In this document: in pieces, positions 4,816-8,747 of the stretch
Numbering within the stretch: the stretch's first letter is position 1
How the letters are laid out: every line of letters starts with the position of its first letter
IMG/VR virus record: IMGVR_UViG_2778261069_000010
Length of the DNA stretch: 8,747 bases
From: a virus
Lineage: Duplodnaviria > Heunggongvirae > Uroviricota > Caudoviricetes
Direction: 5' to 3' (one strand)
The notes under the pieces: model-generated
What the model was told of the DNA's origin: nothing
Database searches by the model: none
The model's input: only the letters and a program-made list of their open reading frames with translations
Position numbers and translations under genes: made by a program

Positions 4816-5644
4816 GACGATGCCCTCCGCTGATATTCAGGAGACGGTGAATATGAAAATTAGCCTTATCCACCAAACGGATACGTTCAGCCTGCAAGTT
4901 AAGAAGGGTTTCTACCAGAACCTGATGCGCCTGCGGATCCGAAAGAGTTACCTTGCGCAGAGCACGTAGTGCAGTTGTTACATAACTGAGTTTATGTAAG
5001 TCTTCATCATTCAGACGAGTGAGGGCTGGGACAGTAGCCATGATGGCAGCCTCCTTGATCGGTGAAATACTTCCACCACCGGAAACGCCAATTTCGCTGG
5101 TGGTGAACTGAACGGGGTTGGCGTAACCGGTGATCAAGGAAACCGGCGCATCTTTCGATGCCCCCGCCCAGCCCACCATAACTTTGATGTGAGCAAATGC
5201 GGACGATAAAAAAGACGCTGGCGCGTCATATATCGCCTTGATCAATTCCAGGACGCCAATCCCGGCACCCGCTTTATAAGGTGCCTGAACAGTGTAACGT
5301 CCCGGAATGGCAGAATCAATGTGCTGGTGGTCCTTCACACTCAACAAAATCACGCCTGAATTTCCACAAAGGACTAAAGCACTCATGCGGGTAGTCTTTG
5401 CGAAGATAGATAACGCGCTGTGTTTCTGGCTCCCAACGAATAACATGAACATAAAGTCCTCTTCCGTCACGAAACCAGCGGTTAAGTTCCTGCACAACTC
5501 GCCCCCCACAGTCAGGTAAAGTTCTCTGTGGTTACTTACAGCCAGGTGATTTGGTAATCTGCATTCATGCCGTAACAACAGGTGTTCAGCGACGCTGACC
5601 ACCAGCTGTTGCGACAAACGGTTATTTGCCGTTAAACTGTTCAT
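4808..5644 (-). CDS. Hypothetical early-operon protein (278 aa), function unknown
   Basis: Long ORF with ATGA start/stop overlap to the upstream gene and GGAGA upstream. Normal GC content. No Walker A motif; no family recognised by eye. Confidence 0.55.
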   Translation of the reverse strand: MNSLTANNRLSQQLVVSVAEHLLLRHECRLPNHLAVSNHRELYLTVGGELCRNLTAGFVTEEDFMFMLFVGSQKHSALSIFAKTTRMSALVLCGNSGVILLSVKDHQHIDSAIPGRYTVQAPYKAGAGIGVLELIKAIYDAPASFLSSAFAHIKVMVGWAGASKDAPVSLITGYANPVQFTTSEIGVSGGGSISPIKEAAIMATVPALTRLNDEDLHKLSYVTTALRALRKVTLSDPQAHQVLVETLLNLQAERIRLVDKANFHIHRLLNISGGHRHA

Positions 5645-6526: not shown

Positions 6527-7201
6527 ATGAAAACAGTCCATGACATCCGGCGGTCTAACGCCAGAAAACTGAGAGATGGTGTTGGCGGGAATTCTTCCTT
6601 TGCCACCATGATTGATCGCGAGCCAACCCAGACCAGCAGGTTTATGGGAGATGGTGCAACTAAAAATATCGGTGACAGCATGGCACGGCACATCGAAAAA
6701 TGTTTCGACCTGCCTGTCGGATGGCTTGATCAAGAACACCAGACAACGAACATCACAAAAAAACCTGATGTTTCAATCACTAACAAACAAATAACGTTAG
6801 TCCCTGTCATATCATGGGTACAGGCCGGAGCATGGAAAGAAGTTGGCTATTCTGAGGTTGATTTGAGCACAGCAGAAACTTATCCCTGCCCTGTACCCTG
6901 TGGCGAAATGACTTATATCTTGCGGGTGATTGGTGATTCAATGATTGATGAATACCGCCCGGGAGATATGATTTTTGTTGATCCTGAAGTACCTGCCTGC
7001 CACGGTGACGACGTTATTGCATTGATGCACGATACAGGTGAAACCACCTTTAAAAGGTTGATAGAAGACGGAACACAACGTTATCTCAAAGCATTAAACC
7101 CAAACTGGCCAGAGCCTTACATTAAGATCAACGGTAATTGTTCCATAATTGGTACTGTGATTTTCTCAGGAAAACCAAGGAGATACCATATTAAAGCCTA
7201 A
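6527..7201 (+). CDS. cI: CI-type phage repressor (HTH N-domain, S24 LexA-like autopeptidase C-domain), P22 C2 / lambda CI-like
   Basis: C-domain matches by eye: ISWVQAG (Ala-Gly cleavage site), GDSM (catalytic Ser), DMIFVDPE, TTFKRL (catalytic Lys), LNPNWP, NGNCSIIGTVI. These parallel P22 C2 (ISWVSAGQW, GDSM, ILVDPE, TFKKL, LNPQYP, NGNCKIIGVV). Confidence 0.9.
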   Translation: MKTVHDIRRSNARKLRDGVGGNSSFATMIDREPTQTSRFMGDGATKNIGDSMARHIEKCFDLPVGWLDQEHQTTNITKKPDVSITNKQITLVPVISWVQAGAWKEVGYSEVDLSTAETYPCPVPCGEMTYILRVIGDSMIDEYRPGDMIFVDPEVPACHGDDVIALMHDTGETTFKRLIEDGTQRYLKALNPNWPEPYIKINGNCSIIGTVIFSGKPRRYHIKA

Positions 7202-7213
7202 TCAATATTTATG

Positions 7214-7236
7214 AACCTGCTTCGGCAGGTTTTTTT
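7214..7236 (+). terminator. Rho-independent terminator downstream of cI
   Basis: Stem AACCTGC / GCAGGTT with a TTCG tetraloop, followed by a T-run (7230-7236), 13 nt after the cI stop. Confidence 0.7.
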
Positions 7237-7240
7237 ATAC

Positions 7241-7268
7241 TTGACAATGTACCCTTGAGATACATAAT
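7241..7268 (+). promoter_or_regulatory. pL-like sigma70 promoter with overlapping operator repeats (OL-like)
   Basis: -35 TTGACA (7241-7246), 16-bp spacer, -10 CATAAT (7263-7268). Two copies of AATGTACCC (7246-7254 and 7265-7273, 19-bp period) overlap the spacer and -10, as expected for repressor operators. Confidence 0.55.
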
Positions 7269-7376
7269 GTACCCAGATGAAACAGCGAACAGGCAGGATG
7301 CCCACGAAGTAGCCGCCCGGGGCATATGAAGACCGGGATGATTCGTTAGCAACAAAAAAGCGCCGTACCGGACACT

Positions 7377-7389
7377 TCGCTCTTTAACA
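7377..7389 (+). promoter_or_regulatory. boxA-like antitermination element (rrn/nut type) in the pL leader
   Basis: CGCTCTTTAACAA closely matches the rrn boxA consensus GCTCTTTAACAA and lambda nut boxA CGCTCTTA. It lies about 100 nt downstream of the predicted pL start. No clear boxB hairpin was identified by eye. Confidence 0.45.
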
Positions 7390-7435
7390 ATCTGATCCCC
7401 ATCAACAAGTAATTGATAACTTGAGGAAGTGTGAA

Positions 7436-7678
7436 ATGCACAAAACAGAACCAAAAATCGTCGCGCCAGGCTACACAGATGAGGAAATTTACGAGTGGAT
7501 GACAAAGAAGCTGGCTGCTATAAACCAGCTTCGTGAAGTGCAGTCTTATCGTCAGGAAACAATAGACTCCTTAAAAAAAACTAGATCAGGAGATCACATC
7601 TTTATCGCAAGAATCTACTCTAGATATTGTTCATACAAATTAGGATCCCATTCTTTTTCGTCAAAGTTATCAAAGTGA
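7436..7678 (+). CDS. Small hypothetical ORF, first ORF of the pL transcript; 3' part runs into the AT-rich island and may be truncated or fused
   Basis: ATG at 7436 is preceded by GAGGAAG (6-nt spacer). The first ~45 codons are in normal-GC DNA; the remainder lies in AT-rich DNA and overlaps the 3' end of the convergent gene 7615-8049. Not arginine-rich, so not N-like. Confidence 0.3.
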   Translation: MHKTEPKIVAPGYTDEEIYEWMTKKLAAINQLREVQSYRQETIDSLKKTRSGDHIFIARIYSRYCSYKLGSHSFSSKLSK

Positions 7679-8049
7679 TAAATTTGAGATCTCCAGTCTA
7701 AATTATCTAAAAAATCCTTAGCTCTTTTACTCATTTTATCAAACGTCAATTCATCCTGAATAGAAAGAATAAGATCATCAAACTCCATTTCATTAATTTT
7801 TTTTGGTGTCCAATGATGTTTCATAAGAATAAGGTGAATCAACGCATTTTTCCCTTTCAATTGATTATAGGGTGTGCTGAATTTCTTTCTATGCTCATAT
7901 AGTACAAGATCAAGCAAAGTCAGGAATGCGGCTCTTGATTCAACCTTAACTTTATCGATTGTTTGAACTATTCCACTAGTATTAATACCACGACACTTTC
8001 CAACATTTTCACAGTGGGATGCATACAGGTCACGTATATAAACAGACAT
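7615..8049 (-). CDS. Hypothetical protein (144 aa) in an AT-rich island, antisense to the pL operon; candidate accessory/exclusion gene
   Basis: ATG at 8049 is preceded by AAGGAAAAG. Composition is sharply AT-rich from about 7566 to 8050. No family recognised. The frame remains open upstream to 8313 in GC-rich DNA, but the RBS and composition favour the 8049 start. Confidence 0.55.
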   Translation of the reverse strand: MSVYIRDLYASHCENVGKCRGINTSGIVQTIDKVKVESRAAFLTLLDLVLYEHRKKFSTPYNQLKGKNALIHLILMKHHWTPKKINEMEFDDLILSIQDELTFDKMSKRAKDFLDNLDWRSQIYHFDNFDEKEWDPNLYEQYLE

Positions 8050-8065
8050 TCTCTTTTCCTTTTGC

Positions 8066-8112
8066 GTTGTTGGGGATACCCAGATTAACCGAATCCTTGT
8101 TGTTGGGGAATA
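8066..8112. repeat. Two direct repeats GTTGTTGGGGA (8066-8076, 8102-8112), 36-bp period, immediately upstream of the start of the 7615-8049 gene
   Basis: Exact 11-bp repeat with similar flanks (gttgttggggataccc / gttgttggggaataacc). Function unknown. Confidence 0.4.
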
Positions 8113-8335
8113 ACCAGGTCCACCTCGCCTGATGTGGCTAAAAGCAGGCACATAACAGCTAAGTATTTTCAACCAGAGAGAATCCTTAGCGTTGTGGTGA
8201 ATGCGGCTCAGCGCACGCGGGTTAAGGTTGAGGCTGACAGTCGACCTTCTGTGGATACCCACCCGCCTAGTGTGCAACCTTCGCCAGGCACCGGGAGGCA
8301 CCCGGCACCACAACTTTATGCTGTGTGTAGTCCTG

Positions 8336-8383
8336 GCGGTACCAGCTTGTACCCTTGCTTCCGGCTGGTACCGCTCTTTTTAC
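8336..8383 (+). terminator. Strong stem-loop followed by a U-tract: candidate tL-type intrinsic terminator (or structured RNA element)
   Basis: Perfect 11-bp inverted repeat GCGGTACCAGC (8336-8346) / GCTGGTACCGC (8364-8374) with a 17-nt loop, followed by TCTTTTTAC. The loop contains TTGTACCC, the operator-like motif. Confidence 0.45.
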
Positions 8384-8517
8384 AAAACAGAGAAGAGCAT
8401 CACCGGACGACGGGCTCATAACCCAATCCATCCGGGCGGCTGCCACCACAGGTGTTCTTCTCTGTTTTGTGGAGAAACTAATCGGCCTTGCAGGGCCGAT
8501 ATGATGAGGAGCAGCAA

Positions 8518-8747
8518 AATGGCTAGCGAACGCAGTACTGATGTGCAGGCATTTATCGGGGAGCTGGACGGCGGCGTATTTGAAACCAAAATCGGCGCAG
8601 TTCTCAGTGAAGTCGCTTCAGGTGTGATGAACACGAAAACCAAAGGTAAGGTCTCACTCAACCTGGAAATCGAACCATTTGATGAGAACCGTGTGAAAAT
8701 CAAACACAAACTCTCATATGTTCGCCCGACTAACCGCGGGAAAATTT
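8518..8747 (+). CDS. Hypothetical early-left operon protein, 3'-partial (runs off window end)
   Basis: ATG at 8518 is preceded by GAGGAG (7-nt spacer). The frame is open for 76 codons to the window edge (MASERSTDVQAFIGELDGGVFETKIGAVLSEVASGVMNTKTKGKVSLNLEIEPFDENRVKIKHKLSYVRPTNRGKI). Not in the ORF track because it has no stop in the window. No family recognised. Confidence 0.6.

Follow-up and report, generated by a model that had tools for sequence, protein, structure and literature searches.

The non-coding stretch described here, part of a viral DNA of 8,747 nucleotides (the window), is probably the distal portion of the leader of a prophage early-left operon, in which positions 8120-8517 carry four conserved RNA modules of the + strand, named A, T, B and C. 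The finding is interesting but mostly not new; modules A and T are kin to prophage small RNAs already described, STnc100/PasD and DicF respectively. An earlier note on the same DNA had reported a long, GC-rich and structured interval between a minus-strand island gene (start at 8049) and the next gene of the + strand. The interval is real, even if several of the features reported in it required small corrections of their coordinates. Its GC content is 55-57.5% at 8100-8500, versus 29-39% in the island gene. The next gene is present as well, with its ATG at 8519 instead of 8518; the start signals of this yfdP homologue (8506-8521, + strand) include the Shine-Dalgarno sequence GAGGAG at 8506-8511. 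The order on the + strand is cI (6527-7201), the cI terminator, the PL promoter (7241-7268), a small ORF, the convergent island gene, the region under study, yfdP and yfdQ, the last two being followed in relatives by xis and int. PL scores 11 of 12 as a sigma-70 promoter, and no sigma-70 consensus promoter was found on the + strand of 8050-8520. The RNA of the + strand at 8120-8520 has a folding energy of -167.5 kcal/mol (z = -5.8), which none of 100 shuffled sequences equalled; the z-score of the minus strand is -3.7. Family matches and compensatory base changes support the view of the interval as a structured RNA without coding function. Among the functions put forward with it, a small RNA fits best (module A falls in the STnc100/PasD family, and T has a relative in DicF); the other options named fit less well.

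Module A (8188-8318, + strand) is a pseudoknotted multi-helix domain of the STnc100/PasD type, delineated by an Rfam match, by our own model R1 and by covariation. It comprises P1 (8191-8199/8306-8314), a junction AAU, P2 (8202-8215), the closing helix of P3 (P3c, GCGGG 8217-8221/CCCGC 8262-8266), P4 (8265-8289) and P5 (CCGGG-AGGCA-CCCGG, 8291-8305). The loop of P4 holds the 3' strand of the pseudoknot, in which AAGGUUG (8224-8230) pairs with CAACCUU (8275-8281). The covariance-model search that the note had recommended returned the STnc100 family (RF02076) over the whole model (1-206 of 206) at 8161-8383, with E = 1.1e-8 and 46.2 bits, which is 0.8 bit below the gathering threshold of 47 bits; the match does not appear in a scan at that threshold. 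The alignment starts inside the conserved 5' flank of module A (8120-8187, + strand), which includes the hairpin CCAC-N10-GTGG at 8120-8137. An exact 22-nt STnc100 core is found at 8289-8310. Also present are the hairpin that follows GGUGAAU and the closing helix, with the hairpin CCGGG-AGGCA-CCCGG directly against this helix. The hairpin 8336-8374 and its UCUUUUU tail align to the terminator of the model. R1 places module A at 8188-8318 with 83.6 bits, the window being part of its training alignment, and gives 73 bits on the independent, untrained Qin locus. In spite of its slightly sub-threshold Rfam score, module A is assigned to the STnc100/PasD family of prophage small RNAs.

The comparative alignment, another check that had been suggested, revealed compensatory changes in support of all four modules. 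In P1, P2, P3c and P5, 96.2% of the cells are paired (86.8% after shuffling), and the covariation score is 0.257 versus 0.097, with none of 500 shuffles as high. Because register shifts barred the scoring of one structure string on a single MAFFT alignment, P4 was scored instead by an anchored Python analysis; 33 distinct strands of this helix occur in 50 representatives. The complementarity of the pseudoknot averages 6.66 nt between true partners and 4.69 nt (maximum 5.2) between permuted ones. In phage lambda, the same 5' flank and closing helix occur at 44857-44960 without the P5 core. This late leader was rejected as a family member, Rfam (E <= 1) and R1 both being silent on it, and is at most a remnant.

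Module A is followed by a conserved single-stranded 14-mer, UGCUGUGUGUAGUC (8319-8332, + strand), and then by module T (8336-8381, + strand), which has the anatomy of an intrinsic terminator: an 11-bp stem GCGGUACCAGC/GCUGGUACCGC, a 17-nt loop and the tail UCUUUUU. The perfect inverted repeat described earlier is indeed found at 8336-8346/8364-8374. In relatives, the stem is wholly replaced while the U-run is retained (GUCGGCGUC/GACGCCGAC, GGCGGUUAUCC/GGAUAACCGCC, GGCGGCAUC/GAUGCCGC). With only five U's in the tail and a long loop (17 nt here, about 50 nt in ST64B), T is perhaps a weak terminator and a poor Hfq site. The 14-mer is kept in Escherichia, in Salmonella (ST64B, one change), in Cronobacter (phiES15) and in many viral contigs, whereas the neighboring helices vary. 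It occupies the position of the DicF 5' seed and is a candidate seed or RNase E-accessible segment; no site complementary to it was found elsewhere in the window. Nucleotides 12-58 of DicF align to the T regions of 13 of 28 relatives (e14 and 12 others) better than any of 300 shuffles; for the T region of the window, 3 of 300 shuffles equal the alignment. The Rfam DicF model (RF00039, threshold 48 bits) gives only 15.9 bits at 8322-8376, versus 76.7 bits for the true DicF. DicF membership was rejected on a gathering-threshold scan of twelve related loci and Qin, in which only the true DicF passes. Nucleotides 1-12 of DicF have no counterpart in the window, where UGCUGUGUGUAGUC is found; a terminator hairpin in a repressor-proximal early operon is present. 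As judged from the alignments, the module T hairpin is related to the DicF terminator hairpin.

Module B (8382-8470, + strand) is a three-way-junction hairpin with a basal stem of 18-19 bp (8382-8399/8453-8470), an inner hairpin at 8409-8430 with the invariant GACGGGCUCAUAACCCAAUCCA, and a variable apical hairpin. The CCACA...TGTGG hairpin that had been proposed at 8444-8470 is not a conserved pairing; its 3' part belongs to the 18-nt inverted repeat 8382-8399/8453-8470, which had been overlooked. RNAalifold applied to 22 diverse copies gave 33 pairs, 9 of them with compensatory changes. In this module, 97.7% of the cells pair (92.3% after shuffling), and the covariation score of 0.195, versus 0.102, was reached by none of 500 shuffles. 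The spacing between the invariant motif and the 3' basal strand, which encloses the apical hairpin, is 20, 21, 22, 23, 28, 39, 41 or 45 nt. The motif occurs in 25 species-representative genomes, 24 of which are labelled as Enterobacterales genera. A search of Rfam at E <= 10 gave only noise for module B, no conserved ORF was found in it and many copies have no start codon; it matches no described family. A purine-rich linker, GGAGAAAC (8471-8478, + strand), near-invariant in 27 module-B clusters, leads to module C (8481-8500, + strand), the hairpin AUCGGCC-UUGCAG-GGCCGAU, whose 3' end is 5 nt from the yfdP Shine-Dalgarno sequence. This GC hairpin had been noticed before with a shorter stem ending at 8496; it is of 7 bp (ATCGGCC-TTGCAG-GGCCGAT) and extends to 8500. 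Its stem reads ACCGACC/GGUCGAU, CGCC/GGCG, UGGCGG/CCGCCA or GGCGG/CCGCC in relatives, and its loop retains (U/G)GCAG or, as with GGCAAC of ST64B, a sequence close to it.

The region was found in 2781 of 5426 complete E. coli genomes. An identical layout after a cI-type repressor is seen in e14, SfIV, ST64B, phiES15 and many further Enterobacterales prophages, and in every case the region follows a cI- or DicA-type repressor gene encoded on the same strand and precedes the first early-left gene. Sub-threshold matches to RF02076 occur at the same position in 689R6, SfIV, an E. coli C4 prophage, ST64B, 118970_sal3 and phiES15; the module-A copy of HK639, at 52.6 bits, is above the threshold. A search of the literature on ymfH and on the sRNAs of ST64B found nothing for this locus.

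The best reading of these data, built on the analogy with DicF, is that PL would transcribe the region, that T would end some of the transcripts to give small RNAs, and that read-through would carry B and C as the 5' UTR of yfdP. Loss of the repressor would allow transcription from PL through the region. Some polymerases would stop at T and yield an A-T RNA of about 190-260 nt, depending on its 5' end, which would be the STnc100-like species. RNase E may trim this RNA to a DicF-like RNA of about 60 nt carrying the 14-mer, and both RNAs would act in trans with Hfq. Polymerases reading past T would produce the yfdP...int mRNA, whose 5' UTR would contain B and C. RNase III is likely to cut the long stem of B, and this cleavage would split the small RNA from the mRNA part and set the stability or the translation of the latter. 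The data establish that the region is non-coding, that its structures are conserved and covary, the family relationships, the terminator anatomy of T, and the strand and genomic setting; we infer the transcription from PL, the processing steps, Hfq binding, the targets in trans and the roles of B and C. The copy in the window would be made only after induction, since PL is repressed in the lysogen, whereas the canonical late STnc100 copies have their own promoter. Other observations that go against this explanation are the Rfam score just under the threshold, the short U-tail and long loop of T, and the situation in Qin, where module A is part of the dicB 5' UTR and does not stand before a terminator.

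The near-invariant core and the pseudoknot exceed what a base-pairing sRNA needs, which hints at a role in cis or in protein binding. The leading alternative, possible even if on balance unlikely, is an action in cis alone, with module A and perhaps also B as a regulatory or processing domain of the leader (an attenuator, a sensor of the riboswitch kind, a tRNA-like signal for RNase P, or an element binding RNA polymerase or the ribosome). This domain would control read-through at T and early-left expression, and any small RNAs would be by-products. The family is always found in operon leaders, ahead of holin or nanS-p in late regions, of dicB in Qin and of yfdP here, and for several canonical copies behind a PR'-like promoter no terminator could be detected, the transcript running on into the direction of the lysis genes. 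The multi-helix junction, the covarying pseudoknot and the near-invariant junction nucleotides speak for the same view, as do a tRNA-like gene next to one module-A copy (locus L187) and the tRNA genes beside the copies of P1 and HK639. Against it, inspection by eye revealed no mutually exclusive antiterminator/terminator pairing across the family. A riboswitch-style alternative pairing of P2 with the terminator, CCCCU/AGGGG, was considered by inspection and set aside as not general, because these sequences are common to both elements in one subfamily only. In addition, ARAGORN and the Rfam tRNA model are negative on the window, R1 does not match the tRNA-like gene of L187, and the relatives PasD1/2 behave as Hfq-dependent trans-acting sRNAs (PMC8550237).

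A second alternative, very unlikely, sees in the region a DNA-level array for protein binding, made of distal repressor operators (with an OL-like site in the loop of T) or of direct-repeat sites for a regulator. This loop, inside the inverted repeat 8336-8374, contains TTGTACCC. The 10-mer TGTACCCTTG, formerly viewed as operator-like, is present in both the PL spacer (7248) and the T loop (8348), and each arm of T contains a sequence resembling a GGTACC half-site. However, this match is no more than expected by chance, as seven other two-copy repeats of 10-11 nt are found in the same 2.5 kb, and e14, with an identical gene layout, is devoid of the 10-mer. In relatives, the arms of T are unrelated complementary sequences, so that RNA pairing is conserved and not a DNA site; the helices of 8120-8517 covary as their sequence changes, which leaves an operator array there unsupported. 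The array reading could apply only to the direct-repeat segment 8066-8119, which adjoins the start of the island gene. It contains two copies of GTTGTTGGGGA(-/A)TA(C/A)CCAG(A/G)T, at 8066, as first described, and at 8099 rather than 8102, hence a spacing of 33 nt and not 36. The repeats are retained in SfIV and 689R6 and absent from e14, and the homology to SfV begins only at 8120, on their 3' side. No sigma-70 consensus was found in this segment on either strand. The segment is upstream of the conserved modules and might contain a promoter or operator for the divergent island gene.

It is also highly improbable that the region is a real or decayed ymfH-like early gene with incidental hairpins. 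The earlier note saw no convincing ORF, and no frame is conserved, but a 95-aa ORF with a GTG start does exist at 8134-8421. RefSeq names its e14 homologue protein YmfH (103 aa) and, through PGAP, labels the closest relative a frameshifted hypothetical-protein pseudogene. As PGAP annotates exactly such a pseudogene, the possibility of a degraded gene, raised at the outset, was a live rival. It fails when frame conservation is considered. Single-base indels shift the frame among relatives, frames and ORF ends vary among copies that are 76-97% identical, and a frame conserved among YmfH homologues is not found. ST64B (77% identity) retains all the RNA helices with no ORF over the core, neither the 95-aa ORF nor the e14 YmfH matches a Pfam or NCBIfam family, the substitutions in the helices are compensatory, and the module-A sequence recurs in late leaders, Qin and phage P1 with no ORF in common. 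A small ORF in module B, with 49 aa in the window (8355-8504) and 69 aa in ST64B, was rejected because its starts, ends and frame are inconsistent. The region is non-coding. This suggests that ymfH of K-12, like many pseudogenes called as "frameshifted hypothetical protein", is mis-annotated RNA.

The least probable proposal is that the region specifies an antitoxin RNA, or another regulator, for the adjacent island gene alone (ECs1072 family; minus strand, 7615-8049). In its favor, the 5' end of this gene abuts the region. It is contradicted by modules A to C lying on the opposite strand and beginning 70 nt past the island start codon, by their association with unrelated minus-strand genes (ymfI in e14, another in PhiR29) or, in ST64B, with no annotated island gene, and by a mosaic breakpoint near 8066 (where the PhiR29 homology starts) or 8120 (where that to SfV-type phages and e14 starts) that separates the island from the modules.

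With the interpretation preferred here, a leader giving rise to small RNAs, a seemingly "empty" stretch of 400 bp, carried by about half of the complete E. coli genomes, resolves into four defined RNA modules whose roles can be tested. It ties the STnc100/PasD and DicF sRNA families to one leader architecture, and the dicF-dicB spacer is shown to contain an STnc100-like domain. It also adds a covarying pseudoknot, which the printed Rfam STnc100 consensus structure line does not contain. Module B and a conserved element located after PL, which have no Rfam family, could explain early-left control, including that of xis and int, in lambdoid phages without N. A wider and doubtful proposition is that the STnc100 core is more than a base-pairing sRNA body, namely a tRNA-derived pseudoknotted RNA placed in phage operon leaders and acting in cis, with B as a second RNA motif, in an RNA-only leader of about 1.2 kb that replaces N and nut. 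If so, temperate phages of Enterobacterales would carry this core in the early-left leader, as here and in Qin, or in the late region, as in most others. Acting in cis, it would either be a processing signal of the RNase P type or interact with a host factor, as its sensor or partner. The first early-left gene would be controlled by module B, an undescribed motif, and the post-PL element and boxA would join the modules in the control system of this phage group.

Comparison with known systems places the locus more precisely. The put RNAs of HK022 and HK639 are likewise structured RNAs encoded in cis in the early leader of N-less lambdoid phages, and the phage group of the window also has no N-like protein. 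They are of about 70 nt with two stems, putL being just after PL and putR about 270 nt after PR (PMC9378689), whereas the region lies some 850-1250 nt downstream of PL. Identity with HK022 put was rejected, no similarity to PL-putL-nun being seen by blastn-short, Rfam or R1, and the region, distant from PL, shows no RNA of the putL/putR kind (two stems, about 70 nt, close to an early promoter). A lambda-type nut site (a conserved CGCUCUUUA-like boxA and a boxB of 5 bp with a 5-nt loop) was also rejected, since CGCUCUUUUUACAA at 8372-8385 is only the terminator tail and relatives have GUCCUUUUU or GCCCUUUUU instead. The antitermination element once suspected in the region has better candidates outside 8050-8517: a conserved element at 7290-7345, directly after PL, which matches no Rfam family and is the better put-like candidate, and an rrn-type consensus boxA at 7379-7390. 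The thermodynamic folding of the PL leader is uninformative, its z-score being close to 0, as is that of a genuine putL.

Module A has the cloverleaf-like layout of a tRNA, its closing helix resembling the acceptor stem, P2 occupying the position of the D arm and P5 (5 bp) stacking on the 3' strand like a T arm. At L187, the tRNA-like gene located 270 nt upstream of the module-A copy has in common with it the 5' flank and the acceptor/P1 sequence, the acceptor stem being identical in sequence to the closing helix. Module A differs from a tRNA by having no anticodon arm and no CCA end, and by a P5 loop of 5 nt (AGGCA) in place of the 7-nt T loop. A tRNA identity was ruled out: ARAGORN found 0 tRNA genes in the window and was negative on six loci too, and the Rfam tRNA model had no match at E <= 10 in 7900-8747.

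The likeness to STnc100/PasD is closer. The core GGUGAAU ... CACCGGGAGGCACCCGGCACC is identical, the closing helix, P2 and P5 match, and the prophage location and a Rho-independent terminator 20-35 nt downstream are shared. PasD1/2, for which a common ancestry with STnc100 has been proposed (bioRxiv 10.64898/2026.05.13.724894), show Northern bands at the predicted size, Hfq-dependent stability and RIL-seq targets (PMC8550237). Unlike the canonical copies, which belong to the late region, where they follow either a PR'-like promoter or stx2 and precede holin or nanS-p, the copy in the window lies in an early-left leader without a promoter of its own (no consensus promoter was found in 8050-8190). 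Its P2 and its P3 region are of a distinct "GCGG" subtype, which it shares with ST64B, phiES15, P1 and Qin.

The dicBF locus of Qin offers the nearest parallel in organization. DicF is cut from a repressor-controlled polycistronic dicBF transcript by RNase III, to a 190-nt species, and by RNase E, to a 53-nt species, and no read-through species was detected (bioRxiv 10.1101/2023.04.14.536235). The differences reside in the DicF 5' seed UUUCUGGUGACG, replaced in the window by UGCUGUGUGUAGUC, in modules B and C, which are absent from Qin, and in the order of the modules, A then T in the window and T (DicF) then A in Qin. Both loci nevertheless consist of a repressor, small ORFs, a long non-coding stretch with a terminated RNA and early genes; the T hairpin aligns with nucleotides 12-58 of DicF (UUGGCGGUA(U/C)CAG...CCGCCCUUUUU), and in Qin dicF is immediately followed by a homologue of module A before dicB.

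The stretch at 8050-8517 is a real, conserved and structured RNA region, made of four covarying modules on the plus strand, A, T, B and C. Roughly half of it can be placed in, or linked by kinship to, prophage sRNA families already known (STnc100/PasD and DicF); Rfam has no match for the rest, which comprises modules B and C and the combined arrangement A-T-B-C in an early-left leader. By megablast and by comparison with annotated relatives, the window spans the immunity and early region of an SfIV / SfV / e14-type lambdoid prophage. A LexA-family cI repressor (6527-7201, +) and its terminator (7213-7232, +) are followed by a strong sigma-70 promoter, TTGACA-16-CATAAT (7241-7268, +, 11/12 consensus matches), taken to be PL, then by a small ORF (7436-7678, +) and an AT-rich, convergently oriented member of the ECs1072 family, the island gene (7615-8049, -; NF033230, E = 1e-47). 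Beyond the RNA region, the yfdP homologue (+) starts at 8519 and not at 8518, as given in the earlier note. Relatives carry yfdQ, yfdR, xis and int after yfdP, and the operon position of the RNA region is fixed among them. Elsewhere in the prophage, a C4 antisense RNA (RF01695, 82 bits; 5096-5183, -) adjoins isrK (RF01394, 64 bits; 5208-5284, -), a pair that points to either an immI module of the P1/P7 type or an isrK-antirepressor module of the Gifsy type; an isrK match is also present in ST64B.

The GC-rich, highly structured character first noticed in the sequence is borne out. GC content is 55-57.5% over 8100-8500 versus 29-39% in the island gene, and the folding energy of the plus-strand RNA (8120-8520) is -167.5 kcal/mol, which no shuffle equals (z = -5.8); the minus strand of this interval gives z = -3.7. 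The 11-bp inverted repeat (8336-8346/8364-8374) was found as described, and so was the hairpin ahead of the SD (7 bp, 8481-8500). Both copies of the direct repeat are present, but the second lies at 8099, with a period of 33 nt and not 36, and an 18-nt inverted repeat (8382-8399/8453-8470) takes the place of the proposed CCACA/TGTGG hairpin. The proposal of a structured RNA is upheld by plus-strand helices conserved with compensatory changes and by a relationship to Rfam STnc100.

Indeed, an Rfam E-value scan aligned the full STnc100 model (RF02076) at 8161-8383 (+), at E = 1.1e-8 and 46.2 bits, below the gathering score (47). Equally placed sub-threshold matches were found in 689R6, SfIV, an E. 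coli C4 prophage, ST64B, 118970_sal3 and phiES15, and the HK639 copy is above threshold. A search with the 22-nt core CACCGGGAGGCACCCGGCACCA retrieved more than 120 viral contigs, yielding 111 distinct flanks in 46 clusters. The anatomy of module A (8188-8318, +) was derived from 50 diverse copies, parsed with anchors. On this strand, a closing helix P1 (8191-8199/8306-8314) and an AAU junction precede the P2 hairpin (8202-8215), a variable P3 region closed by GCGGG/CCCGC (8217-8221/8262-8266), the P4 hairpin adjoining the core (8265-8289) and P5, CCGGG-AGGCA-CCCGG (8291-8305). The post-P2 linker AAGGUUG (8224-8230) forms a pseudoknot with the P4 loop CAACCUU (8275-8281). Its strands occur as 30 different sequences in the 50-copy parse, with a mean complementarity of 6.66 nt for true partners versus 4.69 nt (maximum 5.2) when partners were permuted 300 times; for P4, 33 distinct strands occur. 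With 25 copies aligned by MAFFT/RNAalifold, P1, P2, P3c and P5 are 96.2% paired versus 86.8% when shuffled, and the covariation score is 0.257 versus 0.097, with 0/500 shuffles as high and every slid control lower. P5 was fixed by the search pattern and is hence invariant among the copies so recovered; it reads CCUGG/CCAGG in the independently found Qin copy and GGUGG/CCACC in the locus L187, both compensatory.

Module T (8336-8381, +) has the terminator-like anatomy of an 11-bp stem with UCUUUUU after it. Relatives have wholly different, but again complementary, stem sequences (GUCGGCGUC/GACGCCGAC, GGCGGUUAUCC/GGAUAACCGCC, GGCGGCAUC/GAUGCCGC), the U-run and the following ACA(A/C)AAC being retained, and this replacement around a constant U-run constitutes strong comparative evidence that T functions as an intrinsic terminator. 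The Rfam DicF match at T is weak (15.9 bits versus 48). In 13 of 28 relatives, nevertheless, the T region aligns with DicF nucleotides 12-58 better than any of 300 shuffles; the alignment for the window is equalled by 3 of 300. The 5' seed of DicF is not shared by the window, where its place is taken by a 14-mer, UGCUGUGUGUAGUC (8319-8332), conserved in Escherichia, Salmonella and Cronobacter copies.

Directly past the terminator tail begins module B (8382-8470, +), a three-way junction according to RNAalifold. Its invariant motif GACGGGCUCAUAACCCAAUCCA was detected by motif scan in more than 120 viral contigs, giving 102 distinct copies in 27 clusters, and in 25 species-representative genomes, of which 24 bear the label of an Enterobacterales genus. 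The remaining one is labelled Chryseobacterium sp. (L247 3360-3381), which is probably contamination or mislabelling, since the 24 others carry Enterobacterales labels. Over 22 copies, 9 of the 33 pairs of B carry compensatory changes, 97.7% of cells are paired versus 92.3% when shuffled, and the covariation score is 0.195 versus 0.102 (0/500 shuffles as high). A conserved linker GGAGAAAC leads to module C (8481-8500, +), a covarying stem keeping a (U/G)GCAG loop or a close variant, about 5-35 nt from the start codon of whichever gene is first (yfdP-like, RdgC-like or others). Many loci carry T-B-C without the exact module-A core.

The family relationships of the modules are upheld. STnc100 is a prophage sRNA family for which common ancestry with PasD1/2 of EPEC has been proposed (bioRxiv 10.64898/2026.05.13.724894), and its canonical copies have been described near Q, stx2 and lysis genes; the locations of 105 instances tallied here agree. 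Many of these, examined among viral-contig loci L010-L128, have a lambda-PR'-like promoter (TTGACN-18-TAAATT) about 10 nt ahead of GGTGAAT (e.g. L014, L016, L026, L072) and a terminator 25-35 nt past the core, with holin or nanS-p genes beyond it. These copies thus take up, in many prophages, the place of the short late-leader transcript that has lambda 6S RNA as its counterpart. The window copy, in contrast, lies in an early-left leader, and a consensus promoter scan found no promoter of its own. In the late leader of lambda itself, between tR' and S (44857-44960; L238 1058-1160), the family 5' flank GTGCTCTTTCCGTT and the 9-bp closing helix GUUGUGCUG/CAGCACAAC are kept, with no P5 core and no match by Rfam or by R1, the covariance model of module A built here; this is possibly a decayed relative. 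The P1-like record MH422554 carries a copy (L131 2238-2346) scoring 81.5 bits with R1, which had P1 in its training set, and 37.8 bits independently with Rfam STnc100. Its closing helix GUUGCGGUG/CACCGCAGC is compensatory. A weak second copy (L131 2499-2630, 16 bits) accompanies it; both lie among the clustered tRNA genes of P1, ahead of an SPFH-domain gene and the DnaB helicase gene.

In the proposed mechanism, PL would drive transcription through the region and T would end part of the transcripts, producing an A-T RNA. RNase E may trim it to a DicF-like species carrying the 14-mer, and both RNAs would act with Hfq. In read-through RNA, B and C would form the yfdP 5' UTR, the 19-bp stem of B being a putative RNase III site.

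An element of about 56 nt directly past PL (7290-7345, +) is a conserved feature of temperate phages from seven genera (Escherichia, Salmonella, Klebsiella, Citrobacter, Yersinia, Pectobacterium and Providencia) and shows a single compensatory change in a stem, where CCCGG/CCGGG becomes CCUGG/CCAGG. It has no Rfam match and no evident similarity to HK022 putL, and is followed by an rrn-type boxA, GCTCTTTAACAA (7379-7390, +). In 43 of 89 module-B loci, a 14-nt motif taken from the element occurs 335-1790 nt upstream in the same orientation. No obvious N protein was found in this phage group. The element and boxA are a candidate RNA-based antitermination leader, a possible way for polymerase past T.

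With the same anatomy, module A could instead act in cis, in processing, attenuation or sensing. Its core is elaborate and nearly invariant, it forms the dicB 5' UTR in Qin, some canonical STnc100 copies have no terminator, and the P1 and HK639 copies adjoin tRNA genes. Moreover, a tRNA-like gene in L187 shares its 5' flank and acceptor/P1 sequence with a module-A copy 270 nt downstream. However, no family-wide alternative pairing was seen by eye, no tRNA call falls on the window element, R1 finds no match in the L187 gene, and PasD behaves as a trans-acting sRNA. A cis role is the main rival reading, considered less likely than the sRNA one. The L187 gene (in the tract L187 1786-1930 and 1940-2040) scores 40 bits with Rfam tRNA, has an insertion of about 55 nt in the variable region and is silent in ARAGORN; L205 gives a similar match. 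Two orphan T-arm-like hairpins (UUCGAUU loops), T-arm remnants, separate it from module A, and another such remnant stands just before module A in 118970_sal3.

The degraded pseudogene, which the earlier note raised against itself, matches a RefSeq annotation: a 95-aa ORF lies at 8134-8421, and RefSeq labels its e14 homologue YmfH and the closest relative a frameshifted pseudogene. This scenario fails, because three single-base indels separate window and e14, ORF frame and length vary among 22 distinct homologues, ST64B (77% identity) has no ORF across the core, neither the window ORF nor e14 YmfH matches Pfam or NCBIfam, and a second frame is inconsistent. The latter (8355-8504) was rejected as a gene: start codons are missing in many copies, and the spacing from the invariant B motif to the 3' basal strand, with the apical hairpin inside, is 20, 21, 22, 23, 28, 39, 41 or 45 nt. 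The region is non-coding. The annotated ymfH of e14 (K-12-type; L004 2576-2887) covers modules A, T and B and is probably not a protein gene, as its frame is not common to relatives and no protein family includes it. The e14 P5 core has a 1-nt deletion and a G-to-A change.

The modules are not a partner of the island gene, whose slot holds different genes in e14 and PhiR29 and none annotated in ST64B. Nor is 8120-8517 an operator array, since the T stem is swapped in relatives and the recurrence of the operator-like 10-mer in the PL spacer is no more than chance would give, with seven similar two-copy repeats within the same 2.5 kb; e14 lacks the 10-mer. The slot between PL leader and module A (window 7615-8119; L004 2118-2459; L133 1969-2697) carries varying minus-strand genes by phage, such as the ECs1072 family here and ymfI in e14, and resembles a hot spot for moron insertion; mosaic breakpoints lie near 8066, 8120 and 8334.

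The A-T RNA proposed here has counterparts in known systems. PasD1/2 give Northern bands of the predicted size, are Hfq-dependent and have RIL-seq targets (PMC8550237). The Qin-type locus (L239) runs from a DicA-like repressor through ydfA, ydfB, ydfC and 570 nt of non-coding DNA to dicB. This spacer contains dicF and, directly after it, a module-A homologue (L239 2570-2704; 73 bits with R1, whose training set excluded it) ending about 25 nt ahead of the dicB start. The same two modules, A and T/DicF, are therefore found in the same kind of operon with their order swapped. DicF, for which no read-through species was detected, is cut from a repressor-controlled polycistronic transcript by RNase III to a 190-nt and by RNase E to a 53-nt species (bioRxiv 10.1101/2023.04.14.536235), a precedent for the mechanism proposed here.
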